Source: Takakia lepidozioides
Lineage: Eukaryota > Plantae > Bryophyta
Assembly (NCBI GenBank): GCA_030704615.1
Contig: CM060734.1
Location: forward strand, 31,930,001-31,994,000
DNA: 64,000 bases
Reading direction: 5' to 3'
The notes under the pieces are model-generated. The model did no database searches. It was not told where the DNA came from and saw nothing but the letters and a program-made list of their open reading frames with translations. The translations under genes were made by a program, and so were the position numbers. Below, one piece after another: positions 17,361 through 64,000 of this stretch; the first letter of the stretch is position 1, and each line of letters opens with the position of its first letter.

Positions 17361-18641
17361 GGCGGTATAATATTAACCCACATTGCGGAGCATCTTTGTT
17401 TTGAGGTTTTCTTTGTCATTCCTTGGTTGTTGACCCATCCATCCATCCATCCATCCATCCATTCACTCCAAGAAGTGGAGCGGAACCGACAGTGTCGACG
17501 TCAGCAGGGGAAATATCGAGCATGGCGAGGCCTGCATCTTACGTGGCGGGATTTGAGTGGGCTACATCCGGGGGGGAGACAAGCGTATGGATAGAAATTG
17601 GGTGCCACGTGGTAACGGGCAAGGTTTGGCGGCAGGCGCTGCCAGCGGGGACAGCTGGCGTGCGGGCGCCGACGTCCAGCTTCTTCTTCTCGCGTCTGTC
17701 GCGTCTCTCGTTGGCAAGTGAGGGTTTTTTACAAGCAGGTAGGTACCTGCCTATTTTCTGTGACCGCCTGCCTGGCTGCTTCCTCTCTGAGCGCCTTCAT
17801 TACTGTTGTCTGCGGCCCCCAAGCTCGCCGTCGCTTTATGTGCTTATTTATGTAGGTTTTGCGGTGTCCATGTCTGCGTATGTAGGGTGTCAAGTGCTGC
17901 TTCTCATGGTTCTATCCTCGTCGCCTCGTTTATCTCTGTCTCCTCCTTCGTCGCGGCTGTCTGATCGCGACTCACGGTACTCACTACTTGCACTGTAATG
18001 AAACGACTGATTTGCGAATTTATGTTTTTTTCCCATATTTGAGGTCATTGTGCTGCTTAATCAAGCAGCCACGGCTTGGAGCCAGCCTTAGCACACTGCT
18101 ATTTTGTGCCAAGTAAAATTGGCTTTGAGGTACCAGCGAACTGAAAGTCTGTAGGGCAGTTGTGATATTGCGAAGTGTGGTTTGGGGGAGTCGGGTGAGG
18201 GCTAGACATACATACACCGTCCTTCCGAATCACTGGATAAGATAGAGTCTGCGCCGGGAAGTTTTTCAAGAAGGTTAGTTTACTGTTAAGAATCCGCGTG
18301 GGGAGGTTATTCCGTTTGTATTGACGGCATGAACACGAGGATTGGAGCGTCGATGTAGTGCACATTCACGCTGTGCTCGTCTCTCTATTTTCTTCAGGCT
18401 GCATGTAGCATAAGTTGTGCGGGTTGATGGTTCCCTTTGGCAATTGGAGGAGTTTACCGCCCTCGTCGAGGACCAATTCCCACCTGCTTCACGATAAAAA
18501 CTGCTACAGTGCAGCAGCAGAGGGGAGAGATTGATACATACATATATATATATATACTTATGTGCACGCACGACCAAGGGTTAAAGCGATTGGAGGACGG
18601 GAAAGGGGTGGCTCAGAAGTTGGAAGTTGTTCACAAGGAAG

Positions 18642-33400: not shown

Positions 33401-36400
33401 GTACAATGCCAAGCATTTTTGCACCTCATGGCACCCCAGAGTTTAAGTTATGAGGACAGCCAGGGAATCAATAGCACTTTTGGCAGGCAATCATTAAACT
33501 GTGGCATCCAGCTTTCCAAAAAGGCTTACCTGCATGGCCTGGACTCCAACTGCAAACACCACAGCATCTTCCTCATTGCCTTTCTCCACTAGTGTTTACT
33601 GCACATTTTTCCAAGGTGCAGTACCTTTAATCTGGGTACTTGTTTTTGCAATGATACATTGGTGGCAATGAAGGATGCGGCAGTGAAGTTTACCTGCAAT
33701 AATTCCAGTGACTTTGTTCAGTTCACTCTCAATGACAATGTTGGTCACACGCATCCCACCTATCATATGGCCCCCTCGATTGTCAATGTCACGGAGCCAG
33801 GGCTTAAAGATGACCTCTGCAATAGAGCCCTTACACCAACAAACATCAAAGTCGGCCTGGTGGGCCAGCACATAATAGTATAGTGCACCAAGGGCAGCTG
33901 CAGCTGCTTTCACACAATTTCAACACAAAGAATTTAGTCAGTGTTGTTATGCAAGAACAACCTGGAACATAATCTCCAAGAATCACGACATCATGACACA
34001 GAAGAACATGATTATATGTCTGGGTCCATTGAGCCTTGGGGGACGTGTTCCCTTTGACCAGATTGCCATTGCCATGAACAAGTCCTTTGGCAAGTTTTGG
34101 CATACCCAGGACTGGCTTCCAGGGTGGGGAGACCAGGACTTCAAGGGTGTGTCTTGGCCGGTTTGTGTTTAGTCCAGCTAGAGAACAGCTTGTCAGAGAG
34201 CAGGTGGGTCACCCAATCTGAATGGGTTTATCACGGTCGGTCTTGCTGCCAGGCAAAGCATCAGACTTAATTTAACAATTCTGTGTGCACTTGCCAACTT
34301 TGGTGAGGATTTATACCTGAGAGCTGCTCCCCTGGAGCAAAGAGGGTGACCAGAAGTATGGGTTCTAGAAACTTGTGGTACAGCTGCGCCGAAACACCTG
34401 CTGCTCGGAAAAGCTCCTGAGCAGTCATTGCATCGTACTTGGAATAAGCCTTGTCATCCTGGAAACCATCTCACTTTATGAGGGTAGACCATTTAGCCCC
34501 TCTCCTCTGCATTGGGAAGAGTTTGTGTATCCTGGCAAGACACTGGTTCCATGATCAAAGTTAGGACTACTTAATTCCTGTTATAAGCACTGCCTTTTGG
34601 TTGTGTTAGAGGGCCTTCCAATGCTAGGGGATCATATGGAAATAGGCTGCACCAATTCAATCGCATAAGGGTGAATATGGGAGAGGCGTCCAGGAAATAT
34701 GTGAGCCCCAGTAAGGAGTTTGATGCACAATGTTACATTAGAGCAAGCTCAAAGAGTGTCCAGGGATCCATACTGTGTCGAACTCGAGAAGGGCTTGAAG
34801 CAGGGGGAGTGCTGTGAGCCGGTCCACCACCGATAGATTCCTGAGGACATGTACACCACAACTTTTTCTTAGTAGAGAACCATCTCACCATGTAAACACA
34901 TCACTAAATAAGCAACCTGCCAAACAACCTGCCAACCAACTACCATGTATAAGTAAATGATATGACCACAGCTAGCCGGGAACAACCATGTCAAAGTCAA
35001 CAGAGGACAAAGCTCTGTAAGTGGGAGAAAAGGAGATATGATACAGATTCCCAAATCAACACCTGCCAGGAGACACATGATGCATTCTTACTGTTGACAC
35101 GGAAACCAGCAAACAAGGAAAATCGACTTGTAGTGCATCCTTCACCTGTTAGGACTCCGCCTCATTACCTCGGGACTTTAAGGTGCCACTTACAGGAAAC
35201 CAGGGAACAGTTCTGCACGCTGTAGACTTCAAAGCACCCTATTCATTGACATCAGTGAGACACACCAGGTTCATGGCTCGCCAGTTAACCATAGGCCTAT
35301 GTAGATTGCCCCAGGACCAGACTAGTGGCGCCGCACACACTGGCACACCACAAACATACGGCAGAAAGAAACCTGAAGTATGGAGCTGTGTAGAGGAAGG
35401 AGCCCAAAGGAGTTGCGAGACGGGGAAGAGTATTGAATACAGGAGCTTCCACTTGGATGCCATGTGGGGAATAAAATGAACTCCTTGTCCAATCTGTAAA
35501 CGGCCATGCCTGTCAAAGAGTACATGTCTCGTCATGCTAGAAACATAAGTGATGTTTGTACCACCCCTAAATTGTTGACACTGTATGCAAATCAACCTCT
35601 TGCTTGGGTTTCCTCTCTTCCAGCTCAACGCCTCTTTGCAGCATCTGTTTCTTCTCATACAACAGGCATTCATTTCCTGTGCTCTACCTCCCAGCTTGGC
35701 CTGGTCGTTAGGGCAATGTGGCTATATCTTAGATCTTGGATTCCCATCCACAGGCCTAAATTGAAGGTGCCATTACATGTTCCAAAAAGCCAAGGGAACA
35801 GGCAGTGTGTTGCAGGATTAGGGGGCATTAGACATATGAAATGAGATACAGGGGGTGATCCAGGGGTTTGGAACACTGGAAAAGGAGGAATGATGGTGGA
35901 CCTTCAATTGTCCAGCTTATGTTTGTCGATTGCAATTGGTACAAAAAGGAAGGGGAGGTTTGTAAGGGTTCATTCTGCATTCTGCATTTGTGTGATCAAG
36001 CATGTTCAAGTCTAGGAAGAATTGGGCTGTTAGTGACTGTGGAGAGCTGTCCAATTCCTAGGCAGAGAAAGTGGCCTTAGCAGGTTAGGGGGTCATGAGA
36101 GTATGGAAACTACCTAAGCTGGCTATAGCCAACTTCATTCGTCTTGATTTCTTTCTCTATCTCCTTCATTAGAGGGGTACGTTGAAGGTTGCAATGCCCA
36201 AAAGTGCTTCTAATAGAGCCCCACATCAATTCAATCTCAAAGAAGTTCGTCTCTTGACTGGCTGGAGAGCCGTCTTAGACATTGGTGATTCAATGGGGCG
36301 CTCTAGGAAACCAAGGGCAGGGACTTCAACTTGAGAGTTTCTAATCTGTTTGATGCTCTGGATGAGGTTGAATCCAAACAGCCAGACGGACAAGCTGCTG

Positions 36401-39400
36401 TGCTGGTCAGGAGACATGGGAAACACCGGATAAATTGGTTGGAGATGTCAATGGGTATAAGTGGACGGGTAAGATGTGTACTCTCAAGGCAGCCTCTGCC
36501 AAACGCGGCCCAAAAGGGGTTGGATTCTTTGTCCGCGATTTCTTGTTTGATAATTGTGAAATTATCAACAAGGGTTTGAGGTATGAGCATAGTATCTGGC
36601 TAAAACTGAATCTGAAGGGCATGAATACGAAGGACCTCTTTGTGGGTTGTGTATACATGCCCACAGAGGGGACCCTTAGTGTTGACGCAGACAAAGCCTT
36701 CGAAGATGTAAAGCAGGACTGTGCTTCGTTCCTTGCCAAAGGTCAGGTGGTTCTATTGGGTGACTTCAATGCCCGGGTGGGCAAAGGTCTCCATCAGGAC
36801 GCTATCATTGGGCCTTTTGGTGAGGACGAGCTGAATTCTAATGGCAGACGGTTAATTAACTGTCTGGAAGAGCTTCAGCTTTTGACCTTGACTAACAGGA
36901 CAAGAGATGACCAAGTGCAGTGGACTCGTGAGAAATCCCAAACTGGGGAACGTTCCATTGTGGACTATATCATAATGGACAAAAATTTGTTTCCCCAGTG
37001 TGCCAATGTGTTGATCGATAGAAGTGATACTGGTACCTCTGACCACTTCCTGGTTTGGACTGAGATCAAAAGGTGTTTTCCCAACACCAAGAGATCTGTG
37101 AAACGTTCGATTCGGAAGTGGCGCATAGAAAAATTCCATAATGAGGAGGTCAAGGCTGAGTATGTCCAGGCCTTGCAAGAGGCTCTCCCTCATTTTGTCC
37201 AATCGCTCCAAGAACTTCAGTCTCGCTCTGACAACGCAAGAAATGAAGTCGAAAGAGCAGTGGACTCTTGGGAGAGTTTCGTTTCCTCTGTGGCTGACAA
37301 GATCATTGGGAGGAAACTAATTGTCTGCGGTAGAGCTGTTAATTGGTGGACCAATGAGATTAAACTCAAGATAGCTGAGAGACGAGCCCTCTATAAAGAG
37401 TGCTGCAATTTGAAAACCAACAGAGAATTGTGGGCGAGGTACTACCAGCTCCATAAAGATATCAATCAGCTTGTTAGGTCTCAGAAGAAATTATACTGGG
37501 ACAAGTTTACATTGAAATAAACTCAAACCACCATGGTGGTAATGACAAGAAATTCTGGTTGGCCCTTCAACGTTTGTACAAGCCGAAAAACGGTCAGCAA
37601 GTACAAGCGCTGAAGACTACTAAAGGTGCAGTGGTGACTTCATCAGTTGACATTGTCAAAACCTTTGAAACTCACTACAGTATCCTTGGCAGAACTTCTA
37701 GGTCTAACAGTGAGGGGTCTTCTGCTGAATGGAGGGACACAGTTGGAAAAACTGTTCCTATGATTCAAAACAGCCCTGATGAACTGGAGTATATTTCAAT
37801 GGCTTATAATGCTCCCATTAGTTCTTCTGAGATTGTGGAAGCAATTGAACATTTAAACGGATATAAAGCTGGTGGACCTGATGGTATAGTCAACGAGCTT
37901 ATCAAGCACGGTGGCGATCCCATGATAGAGGCCCTAGTTCTCCTACCTTATCTGGAAGACTGAAATGATCCCCTTTCGCTGGCGACAGGGGGTCATTGTC
38001 AATCTATACAAGAAGGGTGACAGAGAAGAACCGGGGAACTACCGTGGCATCACGCTCCTCGATGCTGTTGGCAAGACATTCTGCAGAGTTATAAGTACTC
38101 GTCTCGAGGTTGATCTGGAGTCTAGAGGTTAAGGACGGAATGCCAAACTCACCCCGAACAGCCACATTGGCTGTTTTGGAGCATGCTGACATACACTCCT
38201 TAAGCACCCCCACTTGAATGGATTCTAGAGATTTAGTTATCAACCCATATTGCAGATCCGTACTCCAAGGCAGGTCTAATAACGCGACAAAGCATAGTTC
38301 TCTTAACCTCAGAGTTGACCCCTCTGCAGTGGAAAAATTTAGTGAGCCCCAGAGCTTTGCCCTTGCCAGTTTGAACAACTTTCTGGATATGTGCATCCCA
38401 ATTACAATTGGAGGAAAACTCAACGCCCAGGTAAGTGTAGGAAGGGAGGACCGGGATCTCTTGGCTACCCCACTGCCACTTAAGATCACTTCCTCCCTCT
38501 CCTCTGTCGTTGAATGCTACCACTGCACATTTGCTGACATTACCTCTAGCCCCCAAAGATCAAAGTATCTCTTCGCACAATTAATCAACTCCTGGAGATT
38601 GGTTGGGGTCTCCCCTATGCCTGCGAAGTCATCCGCAAACATAAGGGCTGGTATGGTGATATCACCCACCCTTAACCCAAATCCCTCAAGTCTCACTACC
38701 AACGTCAGCCCCTGACAGAGGTAGGTTCTGTCCCTTTTGTTTCCGCTCAAACTGGGCGCGGGGTCAATGGCCATAAGGCTACGGCAAACAACGTCTTATG
38801 AGTACAATCTATCTCCTTCATTCTTCCCCGAACCCAGAAATTGAGAGGGGTCTTTACATTGATGCTTGCCAAGACAGTTTTTGGCAGAGCAGCCATTCCA
38901 CATTACTGACTTTCATGTGCACACAAAATTCACGGCCTCCTACACACTCAGTAAGTCAGGCAGCAACTTGTCTGTTAGAGTAAGAGGAGACTTACAATGC
39001 CAAGCTCCTGCAAAAGCTGGTAGATGTTGTGATACTGCCACCTGCATCAAGCCCCTCTCCCTCTCAAGAATCCTCACCATCTCACATTGATATCATACTC
39101 CAGAGTGACCACCTTTGCCGGCACCATACATGCACTCTTTAGACTCTTTACCATGGCAGATCCATTCACAGGTCACAGTCTGTCGAACTATCCAGTGGAG
39201 CCTGGAGGGTTGTCCTGGTCATCCCTGACATCCTTCTAGATACATCCATTTATGGTGTACCCCCTCAACTCAACCTAGCCCCTAGCTTGGAAGTACGTTG
39301 TTCCTCAGTTACTGACATTGACATCATGTTTCAGAGTGACTGCCATTACAGGTACCACACACTCACTCTTTCGACCTGGCTGTGGCAACAGACCTGCTGA

Positions 39401-40891: not shown

Positions 40892-41857
40892 ATTGTACTC
40901 ATAAGACGTTGTTTGCCGTAGCCTTGTGGCCATTGACCCCACGCCCAGTTTGAGCGGGAACAAAAGGGACAGAACCTACCTCTGTCAGGGGCTGACGTTG
41001 GTAGTAAGACTTACCTTCATATATAGAATTAATCCGGGTATTCCAGATATCCTCTACCTTCACACAAGCATCAATCTGCTGTGTGTGATTTGCCCAAAAA
41101 CTAGGCCTCAGGAGGGCCTGGGCTTTTGGCTCAGCCTCGAGACTTTCAAAGTTGGTAAACAGGGGTACAGGCACAATTCCCTTGATAGATTTGAAGAGAG
41201 CGTCTCTTTGGTGAGAGAACCCCGGACAGTGTATCAGAAAATGAATACTGTCTTCAGATTGCCCACACAACAGGCAATTGCACTCTCCCTTTCCTCTCTG
41301 CTTCTGTTTGCTGTTCAAAGGTAGGCTTCCTGCCCTGAGTTTAGTCTAGTGCCGAGAGTGGGTAGACCCTTGAGGTCATCCAAGATGTCCTCCCCCATGT
41401 CACTGACTGGAAACAATTTCAGGGAAGTTTTCTGCCTAACTTCATTTTCATCAGACAATCTCATGGCAACAGACATGGCTTTGGAACTACAGCCTCTAAG
41501 TCAGATTTATCCAGCAGGGTCAAGACTTGCGGTTCCAGGTCCAGGTCCTTGAGAATCTCTTCTACTCAGGACTTAGCCTGTTTGACAGTCCTGTTTCCAA
41601 GATATAGAGTCGATTAACTAGGATATCTGGTTTTGGACATATGTTGCAGCTGACCCCACCATCTGACCTTGAATTCATCTCGTCGGGAGCTTAAGGACGG
41701 AATGCCAAACTCACCCCGAACAGCCACATTGGCTGTTTTGGAGCATGCTGACATACACTCCTTAAGCACCCCCACTTGAATGGATTCTAGAGACTTAGCC
41801 TGGTTGGAGTTATCAACCCATATTGCAGATCCGTACTCCAAGGCAGGTCTAATAACG
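40892..41857 (-). mobile_element. 5'-truncated copy of the same LINE family (C-terminal region with zinc knuckle and 3' end)
   Basis: Shares LEYGSAIWVDN...ANVAVRGEFGIPSL and the 3' end ...GCAAACAACGTCTTATGAGTACAAT with the 36171-38807 element. CLLCGQSEDSIHFLIHC knuckle. No TSD found. Confidence 0.88.
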
Positions 41858-48620: not shown

Positions 48621-50214
48621 ACCTGGCACTTAGACACCAATGCAAATGAGAGAGAGAAAAGAACTCTTGGTTGTTTGTTGTCATGCTTACTAGTAGACTT
48701 CAACATACTTGCAACAAATATTTTATTTTATTCATAAGATAAAAGGGGGACAATATTCTACAGTTTTGAACTAGGTCTCTCTTATGTTGTTCATAGTGCA
48801 ACTAATGCAATCAATGTCTCTTTCCAAGAGATACGTCCACTAAATCCAAGAAATTGTGGAGATGCCGTTTTTTTTATAGTATACTAAATGGAAGACTTGT
48901 TTAGTGTTCATGGTTTATGTAAGTTTAATTGGATTGATGACCATGGATGGGACCCTCTCATAAAGACTCTTCTTTTCTTGAAGCAATTAAAAATAATTTA
49001 GGGTGTCATTTAGCCGTGCATTACGTTGGAAGATGGATACATCCAGTGAATTTACAAAGCCTACTACTCAATACCCATGGTAACACCAGTCAACCCCGGT
49101 TGCAGGCCGACGTGATGTCACGTCGGCGTCAGCGACACTGACGGGATTTGGGTCACACGTCACGTCAGTAGGTAAAGACATGGGTAAAACATTGCAACGT
49201 CCTTAGACAGCATGGCACAATTGCCGGCGAGCCCAAGGAGGTGGCAAGTGTGACGCCAAAGTGGCGGTCACCTCGGAGCCAGTGAGCTGGCGTCAGTCGC
49301 CCTGGAGCCGGATGAGGTGGCGAGGCAAGCGCCCGCCTTAGTGGCGGTCGCCACTCTGCCGGACATGGTGGCGATCTCGGCGACCACCACCATGCAATCG
49401 CCTTCGAGACGCCTGAGGTGGCCATGCAAAACACCACCATAGTGGCGGCAGGGCATCCTCAAGCGCCGGTCGCCTCCGGTGAGGTGGTGGTCAGGTGGCA
49501 GAAGGGTGCCCGGAGGGGCCGGCGGGACAACCGCCACGTGCAGGTCGTAGGCGGGAGAAGAGGGCGACCGCCACGTGCCGTCGCCGGGAGGGAGAACAGG
49601 GTGACCGCCACGTGCGGTCGCTTGACGGGCCGCGGCTGCAATACGAGCACGGGCAAGGTGGGTGGCTGGGCAACCGCCACGCGCAGTCGCCGGCGGGACA
49701 CCACGTGGCGCCGCGTGCGGGATGGGCGACCGCTGTGTGGCGGGATGCGGGTGGGGGGTTGGGTTTGGGGGTATGGGCGGGGCGGAGGGTGGAGGGGATA
49801 TAAAAGGGCAGGCCTCCCCCCATTTTTTCACCTTTGCCTCCCCATTCTGGAGCTTGAGGGGTACTTTGGATGCTTCGCGTTCTGAGTCCGAGAGCTCGAA
49901 TTGGAAGAGCCAATGGTGCTTGGCATTTGAGGGCGGGGTTTTCAAATTTTTTTCCCTTGAACTAACGAGAGAATTGGTTTAGGCAAGGGTGCTTGGCATT
50001 TGAGGGGGGAGATTTTTGAGTTTTTTATCCTTGAACTGACGAGAGAATTGGTTTGGAGTCACGTCCGGCATGTGACCAAAAGGGTGCACAAACCGATTTG
50101 CTATGTCAGGAGGGGGAAGGGTTTAGGCCGGTTGAGGGGGGGTGTCGGGAGTGACAATCTATTTTTGTGCAGTTTGTTCCAAGATCTAATTTCATTTTCT
50201 TGCCATAACATACC

Positions 50215-50749
50215 TGTCGTGCGCATACGTATCGCTACACAACTACATCGCTGTCCAAACCACACCACACATATATGCACAATAAAGTAGTCTGCCACAA
50301 TAAGAAAAGCTAAAAGGCTACAAAGGACACACACTCCAACACAAGAAATATGAAATCCATCGCTATCACTCTTTAAAACAGAAGTCGAGCCAGGGGCACC
50401 CCAAGCTGTGGGGACTCCACCCCACAACAACCTACACTCCCATCATGAGCACACTCAGTCCTAAACGCATGAAGGAGCTCGGTCGCGCAGGCTCAACTCG
50501 AGAGAGATGAGCTGCGCGACTGCCGCTCTCATGAAGATAAGACGGTTCAGGTGTCAAACTAAACTTGACACCTGACTTAACACTTGACCTAAATCCAAGT
50601 GTTAAATACAAATAACTAGCTTTATTCTAGTTGTTTTCACACTGTGCTTATTTAACTTGACAGCTGTCGTGCGCATACGTATCGCTACACAACTACATCG
50701 CTGTCCAATCCACACCACACATATATGCACAATAAAGTAGTCTGCCACA
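50215..50749 (-). repeat. 3' terminal repeat block B1-GC-A2-B2 of the Gypsy element
   Basis: 85-bp B copies at 50665-50749 and 50215-50299 (one mismatch seen) flank the A copy at 50300-50662. Confidence 0.93.
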
Positions 50750-51016
50750 ATCGCCCCCCTAGCTGGTGGATAGGTCCCTCTACCTCCAGATAGCTACAAG
50801 ATGTAATAGCCACAGCCATACTAAGTCCTTTATCACTGTCCCTATTGCACTCAAACTCTATAGACCAAGAGGCCGGGTACAAGAGTAGCCCCATCGTTAG
50901 TCGCGTCTTGCAATTTGTGAACTTGAGCCAGGACCTCGTGTGTTCAAGGTCTCCTAGTAGCTGGGCCTTGCGTTTCTTGTTAGCCTTCCATGGTTGTATC
51001 CACTCCCACTATCCAA

Positions 51017-51155
51017 TGCAATGTGGACATAACCAATCCCCATCCGAACCATCTCAAGAGGTGGAGTCAAGCATCCCATATGCCAACCTCTAGAGCATCG
51101 ATCACACACCAGCATGGTGGCTGCCCCTCTAGCAGACCCACACAACATGCCCTCA
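51017..51155 (-). pseudogene. PHD finger at the integrase C-terminus (frameshifted)
   Basis: (C)MLCGSARGAATMLVCDRCSRGWHMGCLTPPLEMV/DGDWLCPHC gives C4HC3 spacing; the first Cys is inferred across a frameshift. Confidence 0.85.
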
Positions 51156-51299
51156 AACCTGCAGATACCACTGCCAAGTTTGGGTCTAATCTTGCCATCG
51201 ACATTCGGAGGTGACATGGCGCACAATTACGCACATGGTCCTTCCAAGTTATGCCATCCCGACCCTCCAAGACCAAGACGCCTGAGGGCAAGACCTCTC

Positions 51300-52290
51300 G
51301 AACCCTCAAAATAACACGTCATGCAGTCACATCCAAGGTCGTAGGAGCAGTCTGCTGCAGGTAAACATAGTCACCAGGGTTGAATCTCCGAACCCCAGGA
51401 CGATAGCCCCCACCACGTATGGTAGCATACCTCAACGTATCACGGTGTTGTGCGATGGCAAGGTTTTCGAAGCCATGGGCATGACTTTCTTGAACAACTC
51501 TGCACGCTACTCACATGCACGTGCCCACACGTCCGGATCGTCAAGGTTAAGAACTGCAGCAGCTTCTCTGCGAATGGATGCAGGCAAATCCGGCTCTCGA
51601 CCAAAGAGAAGAAAGTATGGTGAGAAGGAGGCAAGTGATGCTTGCTTGCTGAACGTGTAGCCCATGGCTAACCAGGGTAACAGAAGGTCTCAATCTCCTA
51701 GGTGTCCCTTCTGCAAGCCATACTTGCGCAAACCTCTCTTTACTGTCTGAATAACTCTCTCTGTCAAGCCATCGGCCTCATGATGATCCCGAGAAGTGGT
51801 GCGGTGGTCTATCAAGGCCTTGTCACACAAAGCCTGAAACTCCCCCAAGAACTCTCTCCCTTGGTCCGTGAGTACCTCAGCTGGAGCACCGAATCGGCTA
51901 AGCACACAATCCAAGAATGCATACGTAGCTCCCTCACTAGCCTTATCAGGCAATGGAACCAACTCAATCCACTTGGAAAAGTGCTCCACCACCACCAACA
52001 CGTACTTGTTGTGACGCATGGTCAGTGGCAATGGCCCTGCGAAGTCAAGACTCCACCTGTAGCCCAATCCCATGATCGGAAGAGGGTGCAATTGTGGAGT
52101 AGGGGCGTTGAATGAAGCACGCACCATGTCACACACCATGCACCTAGCCACAAATTGTTGCACCTCTGTGTGCATACCACGCCACCAATACTGTCCCTAC
52201 AGTAAACTATGAGTGCGTCGCACCCCAAAATGCCCCAACTCCTCATGGGCATGCCGCACTAACCGTGCCCGCTGTGTTGGGTGAGGCACA
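51300..52290 (-). pseudogene. Retroelement integrase (zinc-binding plus DDE core), frameshifted
   Basis: HEELGHFG, FVARCMVC, WSLDFAGPLP, VEHFSKWIE, VLTDQGREF, DGLTERV. Confidence 0.9.
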
Positions 52291-52639
52291 ATCCTCACTC
52301 GACCATCCTCCCACACTCGAAGCAGGTGTGTCCCCTCCCACTTGAACCTCTGGCTCGTTGTAGGATCCGATCCCTCTCCTTGGCAGTCACAGTGGCTGCA
52401 GTGTCTCCAGTGCGGAGGTAGTCCAACACAACTGAATCCTCATGTATATCTTTGGCGCCACCTTGCTCATTGCTGGCCTCAGGGTCCTCAGACACTTGAT
52501 CTACAGTCATCCCTGTTGCAGGTCCAACCTGGCCTTCCGCTGCCAAGATACACAGAAATGCAGATGCATGCCATCCGGGCACCATCTCCTCGTCCGTCTC
52601 ACCATGCCACCGAACTCCAGTGTCATCCTGCTGGCTCGT

Positions 52640-54060
52640 GCATGGATTGCGACTCAACCCATCTGCATTGCGATTGACCAAACCCGGTCGATGCACCACC
52701 TGAAGTCATACTCTTGAAGGATGAGTGCCCCACCGTGCAAGCTTCCCCGTAAGCTTGTCTGACTCCATCAACCACTTAAGTGGTTGGTGATCCGTGACAA
52801 GGGTGAAGAGATTGCCGTATAGATAACACCTGAAGTGTGCCACGGCCCACACTGCAGCTAAGCATTCTCCCTCAAGAGCTATACTTAGACTCAGCAGCAT
52901 TGTTTGAGCGGCTAGCATAAGCCACTACGAACTCTCTTCCCTCATCATCCACTTGTGTGAGCACCGCTCCAAGCCCCAGCATGCTCCAATCGTATGCAGC
53001 TGAAAAGGACGCCCCTAATAGGTCGTCTCAAGATGGGCGCCGAGGTCAACCTCGCCTTGAGCTCTTGAAAAGCTTGTTCTTGCTCATCTTCCCACTGCCA
53101 CTCCTGGTCCACCTTGGTCAGTTTGGTTAGAGCCTTTGCAATGGCACTAAATCCCTTAACAAACCGTTTGTAATAGTTTGCTAACCCATGAAAGCTCGAA
53201 CTCGGCTCACATCCGTGGGGGCGTGGAACCTGTGCATGGACTCTACCTTAGTCTGTTGTATCCCCAATCCTCCAGGATATATCATGTGACCCAGATACTC
53301 AATCTGGTTGTGGAAAAACTTGCACTTTCCCGGATGTAATTTCAATCCGTGCATCCTCAAGCGCTCAAATACCCCCTGAAGGTGTCTCTCATGCTCCTCC
53401 ACCGTAGCACTAAAGATGATGATGTCATCTATGTAGCACCGAGCAAACTCCACCCGTGCTAGAATCCTATCCATGACCCTTTGAAACTCAGCAGGAGCGT
53501 TTTGAAGCCCAAATGGTAAGAACCGCCACTGGTATAGGCAATCCTTCCCGTGCTCATTGATCCCCCAGAATGCCGTCTTTGCTTATCCGCCTCCTTGATC
53601 GGCAATTGGTGATATCCGGATCGTAAATCCAACGTGCAAAGACCTTGGAATGCCCAATGGCATCAAAGATCTCTCTGGTGTCGGCATGGCATACCTATCG
53701 GACTTGGTCTGATGATTTACAGGCCGGTAATCACCGCACATACGTCTCTCCGTCCAATTGCCATAGACATCCTTTCTTGGCTGGCATCACTGTGGCTGAA
53801 GCATACTCTCCACCAGAGAGCTCCACCAAACCTGCTCCCAGAGATCCTGAGTTCTCATCTGAATCAAGGACCTTTCCATGTCACTGTATCTATAGGGTCT
53901 CCGAAAGATTGGCGTGTCAGTGGCCAATTCAATGCAAATCTCTTGACCCTTCAGTGCTCCCAAGTCCTTCAAACTGAAGGCAAAGCAATTCCTGTAAGCC
54001 CTCAGGAACCGCCGCATACGTCGTCTCTCTCCTCCGGTGACAATGGGTCCAATGTTAGGC
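52640..54060 (-). pseudogene. Reverse transcriptase plus RNase H, frameshifted
   Basis: PIFRRPYRYS, LDLRSGYHQ, YIDDIIIFS, KCKF, YLGH; RH motifs DWSMLGLGAVL, EGECLAAVWAV, TDHQPL. Confidence 0.92.
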
Positions 54061-54439
54061 TCCCAATTGTCCTCCGTAACTGCAACCTTAAGTCCAGTGG
54101 GCTTAGAGGTAGAGGACGCGTCCCGTGGTTGCTATGCTGCAACCTCTTGAGCAGTACTCCCTTCCTGCTCAGTCAATAACAAGGCCTCATCCTGCCCCCA
54201 TCATCTCATCATTGAGAACCTCCTCAACCCGAGAAGAATCCCCAACCTCATCCAATCCGCTGCCTTGGCTGCCAACTCCTCTGGACCTCGAGCACCTCCC
54301 ACGTGTGCCATGGATGTCTACATCCCGTGGTCCTCACCGGCTTGCCCCTACTCGCTGCCTGTACCGTCTCGGTAGGCAGAGAGACCGTCAAGGGAAGTGC
54401 ACTCCGCACTCTACGTTGGCTCAGCCATAGCCAAGCTGA

Positions 54440-55385
54440 TAATCCAGGTCAGCAATTGAGATCCATTGCTTGCCCCAACACCTGACGACGTGATGCTCAG
54501 AAAAGAGAAGGCACCGCCGTGGTCCCAGTGGAAAAACCCCATAGCCCGCTCTCGCTCGTCGGCATTAGGCTCCACTAACTGCGCAACTGAGCATCCCACA
54601 GGAGGCCAGGGCCACCATCTGAAAAGCATGGGAAGCTGAGCTATGTAGGTAATGCTGCTCGTGGTTGACCCATCCTGTTGACCACTGCCAAAGGCGAACG
54701 GTCATCGTGTCTCACACGTTGAGACTGCCTCCCTGTGTCCAAAATGCCATCCATGGTGAGGTGTGCTGGCCGTTGCACCCATCAAATGCACGCTTGAGTA
54801 GTGCGGGTGACATCAAGTTAGTCCACCAAAGCCGTGGACGATGAGCCCGTGACCCCACTGGCAGCTGCATCCAGCAAAACACTGCTGTCCCAAGCCACGA
54901 CCGGACTTGAGGCACAGTGGCCATCACCTGGCCCGAGAATCACCCATCAGTGACACATTCTCCAAGATGTATGCTGGGAGAGACAGCTTGATGAAGCTGC
55001 AAATGGCGCAAAATCCGCACCATCTCCCAAAACAGACTCGACCTCGAGTCTCGCAATCCATTGCCATGCTTGGCTGATGAATGCTCTTGGCAGGGCCAAC
55101 CTGCCACGACCAGATCAATGGAGCCAACCTGCTCAAATCCTGCGCCCAGCAGCAAGGAAATGTCTGTTGGCAAGGCTTGTTGGTATCCACGAACTGCAGA
55201 CACCGGCAACAACAACTCAGGTACTGCTGTACCAACTGAGCAACATGGCGCAGTGAGATGCGTCGTGCAGTCTCATCCCTCTCCACATACAGGTAACGCC
55301 TTACCCGCACACCTGCCTGTAGCACAGTAGCCAATCCGGTGCTGATCCCGCCAAACAAGTCCAGAAGGCAAATGCCTTCATCCGG
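54440..55385 (-). pseudogene. Cytosine-C5 DNA methyltransferase domain inside pol, frameshifted
   Basis: Motif I LDLFGGISTG, II YVE, IV AGWPCQ, VI YILENV, VIII HRPRLWWTN, IX ERERAMGF, X LGQAMD, all in canonical order. Confidence 0.9.
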
Positions 55386-55779
55386 ATACTGCCACACAAT
55401 AGGTGTGGTATCCAATGGTGACAACTGAGGTGGTCCTGGTGCAATACCCGCACTCTCCTCCTCTCCTGACGGTACAAAAGCCTCTACCCAGGCTTGTTGC
55501 ACCCGTCGATCAGCAAACCCTGCAAATCCTTGCTCGTACCCCACAATGGAGTGTGAACAACCATGGCAGGCAACTCCGCCATACCATGCATGTCATCCTG
55601 CTCTGCTGGAGGTGGCACATCCTCTGCATGGGCATTGCCTTCCAGCAACTCTCAGGCCAACTAATTGCAGCTGTAAAGGCGGCTAGTGTTGGCATCTTGC
55701 CCCGTTGGCAGCTGCAATACCCCCAATGAATGTCACAGGGAGCTGTGCACGACGACCATCCCCTAACTGCCATCCAGGC

Positions 55780-58340
55780 CTGTAGAATGCTGACTCCTCA
55801 AAGTCAAAAGCCCAGGGGGGTGAAGCCCCAATGGGGTCCAATAACCTGCCCCACCAACGAGGACATCGTAAAGAGACCGTTCTGTCACAATGGCCTTGGC
55901 TCGCATTACTGAGCCATCGATAGGATGATCCGGCTGCAGTCTAATGGCCAACTGATGCCGTGTCATGCCCGAGCCTACTCTGATCCTCCCAGAGATGTCT
56001 GTATCTGGAAAGGACAAGGCTCCATATCCGCCTCCATGAGGCCCAAACCTGCAATAGCAGCTCTGCCCAACATCAGTGGCTGAGCTCCCGAGTCCAACAA
56101 GACCCGCAGTGGTCGGTACTTCTTGTCTGCCGGTCCACTCAAAGAGAAAATGCCATCCTGGTTGTCTAACAAGACAACTCAAGTGTCACCATGGCGCGCT
56201 CAAAGGCTGGCCTAGCTGGCAGCTCCGTCAAACTGGCAGCTGCAGCTTGCCATGGCGTAGCCGTGGCAGTCTTGACCCTCAAATCCGAGGATCCCTCTGC
56301 CACTACACCTTCCTAACTCCGCAGAAGATGAAGTGATATCCCCACTCTCACAGAGTGTTGCTGCTAGTCTGAATACTGCAGCTGGTCTTACCCCCGGCGT
56401 CGCAATCATGGTTGTCGAGAACAGAGGTGGCTGCCCCCAACAACACACCGGCTGCACTAGCCTTGGCAGCAGGTGTCAGTGCTGCACGTGTAGCTCTCCC
56501 AATGGCATAGAAACCTCCGCCTCGGTAACAGTCGGGCGAGAACTAGGTGCCATGGAAGGCGTTGACACTGTCTCTGCCAAGGTGAATGACTGAGGCAACC
56601 TTGCCTGACGGCTTGCCCCCCACGTTGTGGATCCAACTCCACCTCTGCACCTCGTGGCTCAGGAACTCGTGCTGCTCCTTGAGTCACGGCTGCAGCAGAC
56701 TCCACCTGCTCTAGTGGTAGTGCTGCTCCGCACATGAATCCCATGCCTCCCATATCTCCTCCCTCAGGAGCAGGAGGTGGACCATCCCGCCTGGGAGCCG
56801 GTACCGCCTGAGCTGTAGCCATGGCAGCGAGCCTCTGCTCTAGCTGCTGAAGCCGGTGGCCATGCCTTGGTCAACACCCTGACCTCCGCGTCTTGGCCAT
56901 GTTGACTTGCCCTTGGCCTGCACCTCGTGCCCGACCACCTCGTCCTCTCTGGGCTGTCCACCTCGCCTTTGGGCGCAACTCAGGATGCAAGTCATAACAC
57001 TGGGCATCATCTCCATGCCCATACTTGCCACAATGCCCACACTGCAATTGTGCAGGCTGTGTTTGTGCCGGCCTTTTGCCTCTCTCTGGGCAATCTCTCT
57101 TGACATGGGGTCCTCCACATGTACCAATATATCAACCCCTGGTTGCCTTGGCCTGCAAAAGATGCCACGGGCCTCTGCACCTGAGGTCCCCTGTAAGCTC
57201 CATGGAACTTGGGTTTGGAACCCTTGCTCCCCTGACCATGCTGTTTGGCAGTCCGTGTGGCCTGTGGGCTGGGCACTGCACCTCGTGCAGGCATGTCCTT
57301 GCCAAACCCAATGGTAACAACTCGCTCCCTCCACCATGTTGAGCTCAATCCCCGCTCAGCCAGCACAAACACATCTGCTAAGTTGGGTTGGGCTGCTTGT
57401 AACAGGGTTGCATCCCTCACCCTATCTGAGCTCCTTGTCCAAAATTCCATACCAGACTGGATTGCCTGAGCTTCAGTAACCATTGGGTCACACGTATCAA
57501 GCGCCTCATACGAGTGTCGGCCTCTCGCAAGTCTCTCACTTGGTTTGCGCTGGAAGTTTGCAACCGCAGCTTCTCGCGGACAACCCTCTGTCGTACCCCT
57601 TGGTAACTCCTCCGCAACTCCTGGAAGATTCCACCACCCCCGGGTTGAATCTAGGCACATGTGTTGTAGTCGTGGCAGGAGGAGTTAGTAGCACCTTTTG
57701 AACTGGTACCACCTGCAGAAGTAACCGTGCACCGGCACTACTTGTTCACTACTAGTGCTGGCAGTGGGAGATATTGGTACTGCTGCAGAGCCTACTGGTT
57801 GCGTCGTGCCTCGAGTAATGGAGACGTAGTCAGGTGACCAATCACATCCTCCACTCCTCAATCTCTGCTTCATGTCCTCCGCCTGAACTCGTGTAATCAT
57901 CCATAGGCGGGCCTTCAAATGTCTGTTAAAAGTCCCGTCCACGCCATGAATGGGGTGAATAGCTGTGTATTGCGCATCTGCTGCAAATCACCCAGCTGTC
58001 GAACTCCTGGATAAAGTCACCAACTCGATTGTGCCACAGCTCCAGAGTACCTACGAGGCCCCTTGGTAGCTCCATACATCTCCTCCATGTCGTCCACAAC
58101 AATGGCGAATGAAACTGCACATCTGTTGATGACGCCTCTGAGTCTGTTGTCTGACCTGCACTACTTGAGGGTGGAGGTGAAGGTGGTCTGAAACGACCAC
58201 CTCGTCTGGTGAACCCACTCTCACTACTACTGCCTGTAGCCGTACTCCCCCCCTCAAAACCCTTGGGTAACTCCGTGATGACACTAACAACGTGCACCTC
58301 CCCCACGTACACTATATAAGGCTCTAGTACTAATTCTAAT
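55780..58340 (-). pseudogene. gag-like region and aspartic protease of the Gypsy element, frameshifted
   Basis: Protease VLLDSGAQPLMLG (about 56060-56110). Gag-like DFIQEFDSW near 58000. Confidence 0.7.
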
Positions 58341-60329
58341 AGTGACACGGGGTGGGCACCTGTTGCAGTTTAAGGGTCATATCCCAGTGGCTCAGGGCAC
58401 CTGCACCTGCATAACCAACCCGCAAGAACTCCTATGGTTGGCTGGTCATCAACCCATTCTCACCACAGAAGAAACACTGGTGGTCTTGCTGGTCATCACT
58501 CCAGCCTCACCACCGACAACATACTCTAGGATTGACCGGTGATCAAATCCGGCCTAACCCCTATGAAAGCAAGCGCCCACACAAAACCAACATGGCGCAC
58601 AGTCAAGCATGGCAGGTGTTGGGGGGGATCCAAACACAAGAATCAAACATCAACACCCCCCACACCAAATCAAACTGCAATGCTGATCCTGCAATAATAG
58701 CCCAGTCCCAAAACCACCCCGACTGACTGGCCTCCACCAAGAGAGGCTTTGGCACTACAAGTACAAGGTAATGAAAATAAGTACAGAGATGGAGGGTAAG
58801 AATAGAAGCCCCAGAAGCCCGCCAAAGCAAGATCTAATCCTCTAATCCGATCTATGCTATCAAACTGCCAGCCTTCTCTCAAAGTGCCTCGCTCTGCATG
58901 ATGGTAAGGTGTAGGAGGTATATCTATGTCCAGAAAACCTGCCCACTAACCTTGTCCCAAGCGACAGTAGCTCGCTCTAACCAACCTTCCTCCTCTTTCT
59001 GCCAGGTAGAGACAAAGCAACACTCTGCTAGCCTCCTCCCCGCTCACTGAACACTAAAGAAAACAAAGGTAGGGTCTGATAGTCTCTCAACTTCGAAAGC
59101 TTTGAGACTGTTTCGGGTGTCCTCATTGCGAATGACCTGCATCTCCTTCAAACAGAACAAACTTGTCCTCGCTAATGAACCCCCGCTCGTGGTTGCCTTG
59201 TGCAGAGCGTTTCTGGCTGCAACGCTGTATGATTGCCAAACAAACTTGTGTAGCTTCCTGCTCCTCTACTTCCAATACCCCACGGCCTTGTGGCTGAACA
59301 CCTTGTCCCCGGGGCTGTTTTGGCTGTGTTCCAAGCCTAGCTTTCACACCCCTTTGGTATTTCACTTACAGCTGCAGAACTGCTGGCTCCAACAGAGTTC
59401 GGACTGTCCAAAGCAATATTGAGGCCCTCAACGCCAACTACAACATTTTGTTGTCTACTTGCTAGCCTGACTCCCAGTATGCAATCAACTCGTCCAACTG
59501 TTCTCCCTCAAATCAGTCTGAGTTTCCTTGGGAAACATAAATCTTGTCCCTTGGGTGCATAGGCTAAAAGAGACCTGCCCTTCATTACGTCCTCATTTCC
59601 CCCCAAGCCATACAAGGAGTACATCCCCAGATTTATCTCTCATGTAGAACCAAACGGTTTCTAGAAACAGGATTGGGATCTTTCATGGCACATTCACACT
59701 CTAAAAATTCCATAGATTTTTAGCAGAGTCCCAAAAACAAAAACCAGGTCTAGGTAGGTAGATATCCCTTTTTTGCAGCTATCTCCCCAAAAACTGGGTC
59801 AAACAGAGTCCATTTGACAAAGATATGACCATTTGATCAAAGGGTTTTTTTTTTTTTTTTTTTAAAGGTTTTCAAGTTTAAAAATTTAGAGTTACACCCA
59901 AAATATCTGGTAACTGGTTCCTGGTTCCCTAAGTTCTATATGGTTTCCTAGGTTCCCTGGCCACGTGTCTGCTGTTCCCCTCCATTTCATTTGAGTTCAA
60001 CAGCTCACCATGCTTTGGAATCCCAACCGTCTTCCACCACAGACCGTGGTGACGATGGAGGTCGTGGAGCGATTCTTCCCAGTGAACCCTCGAGAGACGA
60101 GTCCTCGAGAGACAAGTCCCCTGCGCACTTGATATACACTCTCTTAATAGAGATCAAAATCAGCAAGGAACAACCATTGACGACACCCAGAGATCAGAGA
60201 CAAGTACTTGCGCAGTTCGGAGGCCACAGCATCCCCTCTGGACACTGGGCGGGGAATAGCTGCTACACAGCAGCTCAGTCTATCCTCAGTTCCTATACCT
60301 ACTAGTTTCCTGCCCCTGCTCCTCCTTCT

Positions 60330-60869
60330 TCACAGCAAATGGCCTAAGATCTGGTGGGAGTTACGTGTATCAGCAGGTGCTGGAGATGCTCGAGATCTAG
60401 AATTGCTGTGAAATGGGCTTCCAGTGCTCGCCCTACGAGGGCTTGGATTGCCTCGTGTGGCTTTCGGAGAAGGGTCTGATAGACCACTCGATATTCTTGA
60501 TGTCTTGATGGCAGAGAGTGAGGAATTCTTCATAACAGCTTGATGCAAGGCACTGTAAGCTGCTGATTCGCTATCCAGTGATGGAAAGAGTGGTGTGGCT
60601 GGGGGTGTCAATAGCCAGTCATAGTCATTCTTGTCTATATCAGAATTGAGCAAGTCGCTCCCCACTCCTTTTCGCTTGATGGGGGGGGCTGCACCTTGGT
60701 ATCAGAGAGAGGCTTCGAGGTCCTGAGTGTTTGGATGCAAGAACTGAGTGTGCTCCCGAGTGCGCATATCCTTGAACAAGGCCAGGTCTTCGTCCTTCTC
60801 CTTCACCATGCTGCCGGTACTGCGCCCGCGGCGGTGCTGTCCAGCAACCGCCCACGTCCCTCTATCCAT
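60330..60869 (-). pseudogene. Captured intronless 5' fragment of a host basic proline-rich (BPP-like, microtubule-associated) gene
   Basis: MDRGTWAVAGQHRRGRSTGSMVKEKDEDLALFKDMRTRE...ASL*YQG...DLLNSDIDKNDYDWLLTPPATPLFPSLD. The hallmark family motifs are in one frame, with one internal stop. Confidence 0.8.
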
Positions 60870-62212
60870 TCTGATGTCCCTGTGTCAGGCGCTCTCCAGC
60901 ATCCTCCGGAAGCCCGTTACTTCGATGACGCCAATCCGCGCATATTGCTGCCTATCTGACTCCATAGAGCACCTGGAGGGAACATGTATCGACACCCATC
61001 CGAAGAAAACCAATGTAGCACCATCAGGACAGGAACCTGAACGCATCTTCACTTTCGAACTGCTTCCAGCGGTCTGCTGCGCCACAAACAAAAAGTGCTG
61101 CTGCAGTTGATGAAAAAAATTGAGCTGGTGGAAGAGGATGTTTGGGTGCAAGAGGTATTGCAACACTGTATAAGCTCAGCTGAGTAAAACCTATCCCTTG
61201 ACCTCCACACTTGGGCAGGCAGTAACCTTCTTCCTTGCCACTCTCACAAGCAGATTGTCAATGTCTGGCACAAGCATAGTACTCCTCCTGTCCGTCTCCA
61301 CCTATGCTATTCAAACCCTTACCTTCTACCGCCTGAAGCCGAACATTTCGTGCATAGCAACAGCACGCTTGCCATCCTTGCAAGCCCAGCTGCTACTTCT
61401 TACACTACTATTAATGCCCACACAAACTGCCATCGGAATATTGGCAGCATTGTGAGACAAGCAGGCCCGCTGCCACATTGCAGTTCCCAAGCTCCACCGC
61501 CACAGCAAGCCAAGGCGACAGACGAGGAATTGGGAAAGGAAATCCGGCACGTGTGAACAATGGCAGAGAGCTGCAGCCTGCTGCTGCTGCAGCTCGCGCA
61601 GACACGAGAGAGAGACTTTGGCTTCTTTGGATCAATTTGGCTTCTTTGGACTTTGGCTCCGAGTGTGTATTGATAGAGGGGGTCACTTGCCACCTACCAC
61701 AATCCCTCCAGAGGGCATGGTGTGTGTGCAGATCTGTATGCTGCCACTCGGCATATCCTCCGCAGGCGGACGACGCCCTTACAGTGGAAGCACACCTCAC
61801 CAATGCCATGCACCGCTTAGCTCCACACTCCTGCGCATTTTCTCCTTTTCTCCGGCAGGTGCAGCAGCAGCACCTCCACCAGAGGAAGCCACCACAACCA
61901 GGGATGACGCCACCCCAAACTGTTTGCACTTCGTGATCCAGCCACTCCCGACTGTTTTGGGTCCGAATCCAAAAGTTTACACGAGTCTCGTCTCCCTCCG
62001 TTCAAGTGAAAGAGAGTAGGGAAGCCAACTATCAAAGTCTTCAACCTCCACACCTCTTGGTTTTCAAACTCACGAGCAGAGACGACAACTAAATCTGCGC
62101 GCACAGCCCATGGAAACAGCAGGGCCAGATGGACTCCCGCCCCAAGATATATATTATAATAATGCTAAAACAAACATTGTATCTAGCTTAGCACCAGCAC
62201 ACTAGATAACGG

Positions 62213-62226
62213 TCATCTCTCTCGAG
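62213..62226 (-). promoter_or_regulatory. Putative self-priming primer-binding site
   Basis: CTCGAGAGAGATGA, directly after the 5' repeat's terminal CA, is complementary to 62431-62418 within the repeat. Confidence 0.7.
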
Positions 62227-62583
62227 TGATAAGAAAAGCTAAAAGGACACACACTCCCAACACAAGAAATATGAAATCCATCGCTATCACTCTTTAAAAC
62301 AGAAGTCGAGCCAGGGGCACCCCAAGCTGTGGGGACTCCACCCCACAACAACCTACACTCCCATCATGAGCACACTCAGTCCTAAACGCATGAAGGAGCT
62401 CGGTCGCGCAGGCTCAACTCGAGAGAGATGAGCTGCGCGACTGCCGCTCTCATGAAGATAAGACGGTTCAGGTGTCAAACTAAACTTGACACCTGACTTA
62501 ACACTTGACCTAAATCCAAGTGTTAAATACAAATAACTAGCTTTATTCTAGTTGTTTTCACACTGTGCTTATTTAACTTGACA
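62227..62583 (-). repeat. 5' terminal repeat A1 (357 bp, TG...CA)
   Basis: Near-identical to 50300-50662 (a 9-bp and small homopolymer indels). Confidence 0.93.
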
Positions 62584-62592
62584 TACCAAGCA

Positions 62593-64000
62593 ATGTCTGG
62601 AACAAGGTCTAGCACTGGGACAGGAAGTTCATCAGGGAAAAAGAAGAAACATGGATCGGAGCGTGATAGCGCTATCAACAGAGACTATTACCCCAGCAAA
62701 GCCGCCGGGGATGTTGTCAAGGAGTTGGTGCTAGCATATTTTATGGAGAAGAGCATGATGTACTTCCAAAGTGCGTATGTCCGGCATGGACACGATGGAT
62801 TTTGCAAGTTTGAACTGCGGATGGAGCAAAAAATCCGGGAAGCTTTGGCCGGGGAGAAGTGGACAGAGGAGAGGGAGAAGCGCAAGTTCGACCAGTGGGT
62901 GGAACATCGAGTGGGCGACATCACATGGAATCTCAAACAGCTTATTGGTTTGATGGTGAAACAAACGACAGCGGTCTGCTGCCGGCTTGGGAGAAGGACT
63001 CGTTTGTGTGAGTTGGCTGGTGGGCGGATTCAGCGAAGGCCCACGGAAAACGCCGCACCAAGTCACTGACACGGAGGCAGCCCGACAGCATTCCTGGAGA
63101 GGGAGCGGCATTGTTGTACCTCAGTTCAAATGCAGTGGTGGAGCAGTTGGATGCACCACGGGAGGGGGGCTTCGGACGAGATCGTAAGGCACGAATTGCG
63201 GGTGATATCCGAATTAATATTAATTGGCAATTGGTGGGGAAAACACCTAAGGAGAAAGATCATCATCTTGCTAGGAGGCAACATTTTGAAGAGGCCATGG
63301 CTATGCGATTCGCACATCATGGGATTATAAAATATATATGTGTTCATCCACGAGACTTGGAGTGTTACACATTGTGGTGGAATGGGGGTTCCCTACTTGA
63401 TGTTTGGAAGAGTGACGAACGATTTGGGAGCCGGGTGGATAACAGGAGCTCACTATTGGCAAAGCATTGGATCGAGCAAGAACAGGAGCAGGTGAACCGT
63501 TTGGTTCGTTACCGCCGCCACCAGAGTAAATTAGCTTGGGCACTATTGAGCATTATGGATAGTGTTCATAAGAACCACGTCATGCACAATGACCTTTCAC
63601 CGAGTAATATTTTGTTGCATTTCCCGGATAGTACCGACCAGGTGTACATCGGGGCGTGTGATTGGGAAATGGCAACCTCCATCGAGGCAGGACACATTTT
63701 CACGAATTTTTTACACATCCCCATAGTTCACAATTTGTCCTCCGGAATAGCATCACATCCATCGGCCGCTTGAATTTTTGGCCTATCGTAAACGTCCCAA
63801 TTGAGGTCCTGTTTCTTCCATTTGGCACCTCTCTATCCTGCGGGGCCTGGTTCGACCGCCTCCCCGAAGATATTTCCATATCTTTTTGAAACTACCAACA
63901 AAATGAAGGAGGAATTGCATCGGTGTTGGTGGGTGGCGCCAGAGATTGCTATGGTCCACGCGGCAACAAACAATTTGGTGGATGACACACCGCGAAGGCC
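62593..64000 (+). pseudogene. Degenerate atypical protein-kinase-like gene (probably transposon-borne), runs off window
   Basis: EGGFG loop, HNDLSPSNILL catalytic loop, CDWEMA (DFG-equivalent), WWVAPE near 63935. Several frameshifts. Confidence 0.7.

Follow-up and report, generated by a model that had tools for sequence, protein, structure and literature searches.

DNA methylation is the main tool of plants against transposons, and a retrotransposon lineage that has kept a de novo methyltransferase of its own across algae, liverworts and mosses thus points to an unrecognised benefit. The closest described system is KnitGypsy-Dnmt3 of Klebsormidium nitens, a Gypsy element of one alga that carries a DNMT3-like domain (de Mendoza et al. 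2018, PMC5890265). No methylation appeared when the Klebsormidium domain was assayed in yeast, a result that the authors call inconclusive, and human DNMT3B likewise failed in that assay; SymbioDIRS-Dnmt3 of the dinoflagellate Symbiodinium produced de novo CG methylation in yeast (PMC5890265). In the available text of the same study, methylation of the cDNA is proposed as a role of such enzymes (PMC5890265). Two later papers, in their available parts, place elements of this kind in 'streptophytes' and name no land plant, and the supplementary table of one of them, as far as it is available, has no Marchantia or Sphagnum row.

In the window, that is, the whole 64-kb stretch of DNA analysed here, a 12.4-kb Gypsy element with TG..CA ends occupies positions 50215-62583 on the minus strand and displays the Gypsy order protease-reverse transcriptase (RT)-RNase H-integrase, its coding parts and repeats all lying on that strand. 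The gag region (56600-58088), with two zinc-knuckle-like motifs (57015-57119), was found by tblastn with the Marchantia protein P0008. It is followed by an aspartic-protease-like domain (55811-56169), assigned from its LLDSGAQ motif at 56080-56100 and its position, with no Pfam match. Further along lie the RT (53250-53870, YIDD at 53418-53435; PF00078, 86.3 bits), the RNase H (52730-53015) and a DDE integrase with a zinc finger (51500-52280; PF00665, 54.1 bits, and PF17921), all three broken. No chromodomain was found after the integrase, whose C-terminus instead carries a PHD finger, also broken (51020-51145; PF00628, 29.8 bits). The PHD finger is in frame with the integrase in the metagenome loci L029 and L055, and the frame ends right after it in relatives. 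None of the 18 pieces scanned with Pfam matched a tyrosine recombinase, and an rve integrase is present.

Between the LLDSGAQ and YIDD motifs, on the same strand, lies a cytosine methyltransferase (DNMT) domain (54420-55380, minus strand) with motifs I to X. The full ordered set of C5-methyltransferase motifs that the original prediction had described is there: motif I (LDLFGG, 55341-55364), motif II (YVERD, 55275-55289), motif IV (GWPCQ, 55087-55101), motif VI (ILENV, 54954-54968), motif VIII (AHRPRLWW, 54823-54846), the motif IX region (EPNADERERAMGF, 54534-54572) and motif X (RRQVLGQAMDL, 54458-54490) follow each other in canonical order, and the catalytic PC and ENV are present. The domain also passes the C5-methyltransferase profile PF00145, since one 110-residue piece, out of the 18 scanned, scores 39.2 bits, above the cut-off of 22. 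The motifs are scattered over all three frames, and alignment to the homologue P0001 reveals 9 frame changes and 2 stops from 55370 to 54430. In a frameshift-aware alignment, 403 of 686 residues of protease plus DNMT are identical to P0001, and the DNMT alone reaches 72% identity. By sequence, the best solved relatives of P0001 are DNMT3A, 3C and 3B (E 3.6e-11), DRM and HaeIII scoring lower. The predicted structure of P0001, with pLDDT mostly above 90 across the domain, matches DNMT3A, 3B and 3C, with a TM score of 0.82 to DNMT3A, normalised on the target. Judged by its similarity to P0001 and the predicted fold of that homologue, the window domain is a DNMT3-like C5-methyltransferase. A DRM identity is ruled out, as the motif order is canonical rather than permuted and the DRM score falls far under that of DNMT3A.

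The idea that a host or foreign methyltransferase happened to insert into this single copy, or that the assembly is chimeric here, is exceedingly improbable, and we regard it as already refuted. The copy is heavily broken and carries other captured DNA in its 5' region, as such an accident might leave it, but the domain occupies the same position in proteins from Marchantia, Sphagnum, Calypogeia, Closterium and Klebsormidium. The first protein search returned 22 matches (14 from Marchantia, 2 from Sphagnum, 2 from Calypogeia and 4 without a name), 19 of which show protease and then DNMT and 3 DNMT only. A DNMT profile found 80 metagenome loci, and RT follows DNMT in 34 of the 40 loci with room for it, the window included. 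Depth points the same way: summed contig depth in run X1 is even across the junctions (6.2-7.4e5 in the DNMT bins, 7.3-9.1e5 in the RT/RNase H bins), and in the public runs the DNMT exceeds the low-copy 5' cargo by a factor of about a thousand, these being depths rather than copy numbers and coming from four runs, three of them from one sample. The DNMT and RT trees are congruent as well, the domain is present in sibling copies and in liverwort and moss elements, and it is bounded by no target-site duplication of its own, so that it is no secondary insertion. Thus, the DNMT is a family-wide part of a high-copy element. A further RT-RNase H fragment (L029:4006-6172), old and from the bryophyte RT clade, has no DNMT match upstream; it is either a truncated copy or a DNMT-less sibling.

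Codon comparisons among the loci gave dN/dS values of 0.54 for DNMT, against 0.33 (RT), 0.32 (integrase) and 0.47 (protease), at dS 0.15-0.4, and of 0.73 for DNMT among close pairs. The set consists mostly of dead copies and includes some duplicate loci; codons with poor alignment were excluded, which biases the ratio downward. Between the window and its relatives, pN for the DNMT is 0.21 at a saturated pS of 0.74, as for RT. At the level of such codon comparisons, these values show purifying selection on the DNMT, though its dN/dS exceeds those of RT and integrase. Motifs I to IX lie in one stop-free frame in only one of the 80 loci.

The original prediction had placed the enzyme inside the pol polyprotein, which is not strictly right, as an in-frame stop kept in bryophyte relatives closes the Gag-PR-DNMT frame ahead of RT. 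In the window this is an amber codon at 54132-54134 (minus strand) in the context TAG CAA CCA, a putative readthrough site. A stop followed by CAA is found in all 49 loci, of the 80, that aligned to the anchor (TAG in 34, TAA in 15). All 23 colinear linkers stop at codon 76, while any other codon is a stop in at most 3 of the 23. The reading frame is kept across the stop, gag, protease, DNMT, RT and integrase sharing one frame in L002, so DNMT and RT of the relatives would form one polyprotein only with readthrough. Proteins P0008, P0010, P0012, P0013, P0014 and P0018 from Marchantia and Calypogeia end 65-75 residues past the DNMT, and the gene models that continue into RT (P0009, P0011, P0020, P0021) lack part of the linker. 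Many bryophyte gene models called 'DNA methyltransferase' are Gag-PR-DNMT frames of such elements. Several algal relatives have no stop, for example P0044, P0188 and P0174 of Closterium.

The stop context of the window equals the plant-virus readthrough consensus UAG-CAR-YYA given in the available text of PMC3542737, and most relatives read TAG CAA CCC (33 of 49), one base off that consensus. Because the conserved in-frame stop precedes RT, we infer that in bryophyte-type elements the DNMT forms the tail of a Gag-PR-DNMT protein rather than a part of Pol. This protein is likely to be abundant: with the DNMT just ahead of the stop, the enzyme would be about as plentiful as the capsid protein, made at capsid levels and packed into the particle, and RT-RNase H-integrase-PHD would be made by readthrough. 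An alternative concerning replication only, which we hold to be possible but doubtful, is that RT is produced by re-initiation or from a separate RNA and that the split repeats described below are regenerated without a two-LTR circle, as has been proposed for DIRS-type split-repeat elements. Re-initiation is conceivable because most relatives have an in-frame ATG two codons past the stop, as seen in Sphagnum-like loci. However, the window copy has no such ATG, yet it keeps TAG CAA CC, and conservation of the frame across the stop argues for readthrough.

At the ends of the element, the terminal repeats are split into two parts, A and B. In the sense direction the order is A1, 5' region, coding region, polypurine tract, B1, GC, A2 and B2, that is, A-internal-B-A-B. 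A1 (353 nt, 62231-62583) starts with TGTCA and forms the 5' end of the element, and A2 (361 nt, 50302-50662), which has the same start, differs from it by two indels and no substitution. B1 (50665-50751) directly follows the polypurine tract (50752-50763), of which near-identical sequence occurs in metagenome relatives, and B2 (87 nt, 50215-50301), with one mismatch to B1, ends in GACA at the 3' end of the element. A 4-bp target-site duplication, TACC, flanks the whole (50211-50214 on the left, 62584-62587 on the right), and both flanks are linked directly by contigs of X1 and X3 (joint 50207->62581), so that the empty site is seen. Duplications of 4 bp are present in all seven relatives with both ends visible, six of them exact; one of these loci, L040, is internally rearranged. 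B-A-B is found in L029, L055, L057 and L060, and B-A at a contig end in L002. A further nine loci or more end in a single B.

The 5' edge of B coincides with the edge of the polypurine tract, and the 3' edge of A with that of the primer-binding site (62213-62227). This site has no TGG; its 15 nt are perfectly complementary to a stretch inside A, the putative self-primer at 62417-62431 in A1. A duplex of 16 nt, different in sequence, lies at the same place in L055, and such pairing arose in none of 2000 shuffles, while only 6 of 20 relatives have perfect pairing over at least 10 nt. Since the repeat edges are those of the polypurine tract and the primer site, and the primer site pairs with A, B+A should serve as a normal LTR in reverse transcription. 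The process would be self-primed and yield B-A-internal-B-A. The B1|A2 junction is a palindrome, GACAGCTGTC (50659-50668; CA, a 2-nt spacer, TG), with related junctions in L002, L029, L055 and L057 and a mutated one in L060. We consider it the candidate cut site of the integrase, as a cut after CA on both strands of the palindrome would leave the usual processed ends. In this scheme, the ends of the cDNA would be joined into a circle, and integrase would open the circle at GACA-GC-TGTC to give A-internal-B-A-B. A one-LTR circle opened likewise would give A-internal-B. The single-B form could come from such a circle or, equally, from B-B recombination.

The split repeats, the TG..CA ends, the 4-bp duplication, the empty site, the self-priming duplex and the palindromic junction together suggest integration from a cDNA circle. 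The mirror product A-B-A-internal-B, which a simple circle model predicts, was absent from all 19 5' ends (16 of them distinct), which counts against that model and lends weight to regeneration of the repeats without a circle. Against this alternative stands the coincidence of the repeat edges with the polypurine tract and the primer site. Perhaps methylation of one of the two palindromes, which have a CAG/CTG site inside, decides which one is cut; this would explain why A-internal-B-A-B is the sole form seen. Tools that seek ordinary LTR pairs would likely miss elements with such split repeats. Internally deleted forms in which A, the start of the primer site and B are nearly adjacent (L020:5538-5820, L040:14234-14516 and the joint 50758->62241 in X1) are possible miniature non-autonomous derivatives.

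The window copy cannot encode the enzyme. It is dead whatever the cause of its frame changes, because the integrase has nonsense codons (52199 and 51509) where the surrounding alignment is good. The frame changes themselves may be real or in part assembly errors. Contigs at 100% likeness have little or no cover over 54870-54939 and none over 55115-55149, which is evidence neither way, since contigs drop rare variants. Against pure assembly error speak the 327 nt of exact A repeat, the integrase nonsense codons and the long open frames of host genes in the window. Over about 440 nt, the terminal repeats show a single substitution and two indels, and this copy is likely a recent insertion. Relative to other copies (contigs of public runs, 30% threshold), the window differs at 567 positions and by 196 indels. 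It has T or A where the others have C or G at 188 positions and the reverse at 98, an about twofold excess. CpG depletion is 0.51-0.54 in the element and 0.52 in the whole window, so no special methylation history is visible in the sequence. The best explanation for near-identical repeats around a divergent interior is that a decayed, non-coding lineage moved lately in trans, and this copy would have been mobilised by intact relatives. Gene conversion between the repeats and assembly error are the alternatives.

The 5' region is about 3 kb longer than in relatives, the distance from A1 to gag being 4143 nt against about 1150 in three of them, and it holds low-copy cargo (59982-62151, minus strand), whose depth in X1 is 143-2481 while the coding part exceeds 2e5. 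Within the cargo, a broken fragment that looks like a host gene (60333-60809, minus strand; motifs MVKEKDEDLAL... and DYDWLLTPP) has neither a Pfam nor an Atlas match, and presumably it resembles a plant proline-rich microtubule protein family. The target of the insertion, a broken ORF (62588-64000, plus strand) with the depth of several copies, has a weak protein-kinase-like match and is possibly another mobile element. Elsewhere in the window, a second gag (PF03732, zinc knuckle; 7514-9337, plus strand) is interrupted by a single in-frame stop, with 254 codons on one side and 352 on the other. Three degenerate repeats with VDMY.K motifs (9768-10295, plus strand), which we take to be PPR-like, precede a long inverted repeat (11740-13865) of 717-nt arms, 96% complementary, from a foldback or MITE-like element. 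A LINE-type endonuclease ORF (PF14529) lies at 36372-37963 (plus strand), and past it direct repeats (38120-38284 and 41682-41857) enclose an inverted repeat. The host genes with long open frames are a pyridine-nucleotide oxidoreductase (1122-3416), an intronless 483-codon ORF near DUF1645 clusters (18585-20036) and a methylmalonate-semialdehyde dehydrogenase with few introns (21460-23533). An ALDH search found only 9 long gene models, from angiosperms, at 67-78%, and for one ORF the Atlas gave Streptophyta clusters, at low recognition. The PPR-like remnants, that ORF (weakly) and the grouping of both DNMT and RT with bryophytes suggest a non-flowering land plant as host.

Why should a retrotransposon keep such an enzyme? 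Methylation of the cDNA inside the particle appears to us the most likely role, at somewhat better than even probability, because the catalytic residues are conserved, the enzyme is fused to Gag and its abundance is presumably high. The DNMT would methylate the cDNA de novo before integration, probably at CG, and a new copy would arrive pre-marked. It is rather unlikely that the domain is kept instead for a non-catalytic or non-DNA job, either as an abundant particle protein with affinity for cDNA or RNA (it might keep the cDNA ends together for the circle) or in methylation of RNA. Such a job would accord with abundance at presumed capsid levels, beyond the need for an enzyme, with the change of motif IV from PC to EC in several relatives and with the negative yeast result for the Klebsormidium domain (PMC5890265). 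However, DNMT3B was negative in that assay too (PMC5890265), P0001 has a complete DNMT3 fold in its predicted structure, and all 45 aligned, divergent homologues keep the catalytic Cys and the motif VI Glu, while the motif VIII arginines hardly vary. A second alternative, which we think improbable, is that the enzyme does its main work once the element has integrated, or in trans on host chromatin, silencing its own copies or their neighbours and limiting damage to the host. De Mendoza et al. raise this option (PMC5890265, available text), the PHD finger on the integrase points to contact with chromatin, and the family is very abundant; but an enzyme fused to Gag and protease would be expected in the particle, no targeting domain accompanies the DNMT, and CpG depletion of the element does not rise above background. 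On the account as a whole, this decayed copy belongs to a high-copy Gypsy family with split repeats, in which the DNMT closes the Gag-protease-DNMT frame at the stop; enzyme at capsid levels, readthrough, self-priming, integration from a circle, methylation of the element's own cDNA and a recent move of this copy in trans would complete the picture. We lean towards this account with moderate confidence. Since homologues occur in Marchantia polymorpha, a genetic model, the question is testable.

How old is the association? Searched with a profile, 1.84 billion representatives yielded 432 matches under 1e-30, and the 294 stored proteins, a set with duplicates and one query that favoured the second layout, include 54 of protease-DNMT-RT layout (type A), 163 of RNase H-DNMT-integrase layout, mostly with PHD (type B), and 52 that were unassignable. 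Named type A proteins come from bryophytes (Marchantia, Sphagnum, Calypogeia), Closterium and Klebsormidium nitens, and named type B proteins from Scenedesmus and a Chrzof1 model, presumably of Chromochloris zofingiensis. Type B proteins such as P0054, P0072, P0126 and P0162 read RT-RNase H-DNMT-integrase-PHD, with their catalytic residues intact. In a DNMT tree of 117 rows (domains covered over 270 positions or more, with 8 near-duplicates left out), all type B lie on one side (SH-aLRT 97). A hand-picked tree of 50 rows, with 11 phage enzymes as sole outgroup and no host DNMT3 in the set, supports the type B clade at 98/99 and places the window in a bryophyte clade at 100/99, about equidistant from Marchantia, Calypogeia and Sphagnum; type A is unresolved in it, and K. 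nitens does not join the bryophyte clade as a supported sister. The RT tree, built from 10 proteins of type A, 29 of the 108 of type B and 5 DNA-derived rows, with no K. nitens RT, splits A from B at 99/92, so that the two layouts are separated in both trees. In IMG/VR the DNMT profile found only methyltransferases at 27-35% identity (L081-L160), contigs used only as outgroup, and the RT found nothing. These trees fit either an old association in which the DNMT changed place a single time or its capture, twice, from the same source. As to the original proposal that the lineage persisted in or entered a land plant, the DNMT and RT trees fit long persistence better than recent entry. It is a tentative suggestion only, and we would not yet bet on it, that all this reflects an ancient clade of green-plant Gypsy elements, overlooked in land plants for its split repeats, in which a DNMT3 stands before a leaky stop, methylates the cDNA in the particle and rides on a circle opened at an internal palindrome.

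Among known systems, KnitGypsy-Dnmt3 is similar in its Gypsy domain set, its non-rearranged, divergent DNMT3, its DIRS-like repeats in the order A-coding-B-A-B and its purifying selection (PMC5890265, available text). In the K. nitens protein P0118 (GAQ93235.1) the DNMT comes right after the protease, as in the window element, which fits the expected relation to the Klebsormidium domain. However, the host of KnitGypsy-Dnmt3 is an alga and that of the window element apparently a land plant, and its DNMT and RT share an ORF according to the authors, whereas in the window family a conserved stop lies between them (PMC5890265, available text). The target duplication, self-priming and junction palindrome of the window element are not described for KnitGypsy-Dnmt3 in the available text of PMC5890265. 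SymbioDIRS-Dnmt3 also has a DNMT3-like domain in a retrotransposon and A-B-A-B repeats, but it uses a tyrosine recombinase (PMC5890265, available text), unlike the DDE integrase and 4-bp target duplication seen here. The rve integrase and the 4-bp duplication likewise set the element apart from DIRS/Ngaro. As described in the available text of PMC12440569, Troyka has CG..CG ends, a 3-bp duplication and animal hosts, in contrast to TG..CA and 4 bp in the window element, which does not belong there; Troyka is also no split-repeat Gypsy.

In its lack of a tRNA primer site the element resembles the self-priming chromoviruses Tf1/Sushi and Tcn1 (Neumann et al. 2019, PMC6317226, available text), and its self-primer in the 5' repeat has the duplex of 10 bp or more, starting 0-5 bp past the repeat, that is described there. 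It differs from them in its PHD finger with no chromodomain found, its split repeats and its DNMT. Thus, self-priming is shared with the Tcn1 clade, but a PHD finger takes the place of the chromodomain past the integrase. EpiLTRs and DAM-LTRs are algal LTR retrotransposons with DNA methyltransferases, their DNMT being sister to DNMT4 and, in the available text, stated to be distinct from streptophyte Gypsy-DNMT3 (bioRxiv 10.64898/2026.05.21.726589). Foamy-virus integrase cleaves palindromic 2-LTR circle junctions and gives integration-ready ends, the cut falling at the LTR-LTR junction (PMC1180852, available text), whereas the window element would be cut at a palindrome inside the LTR, which would permute its genome. 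If the circle route is true, the family would be a natural case of a DDE integrase that routinely uses circles. Our search of the open literature found no land-plant or chlorophyte report of such elements, nor any of the stop or the circle route. Relative to the kind already published, the conserved stop between DNMT and RT, the repeat and circle features and the second layout in chlorophyte elements are new.
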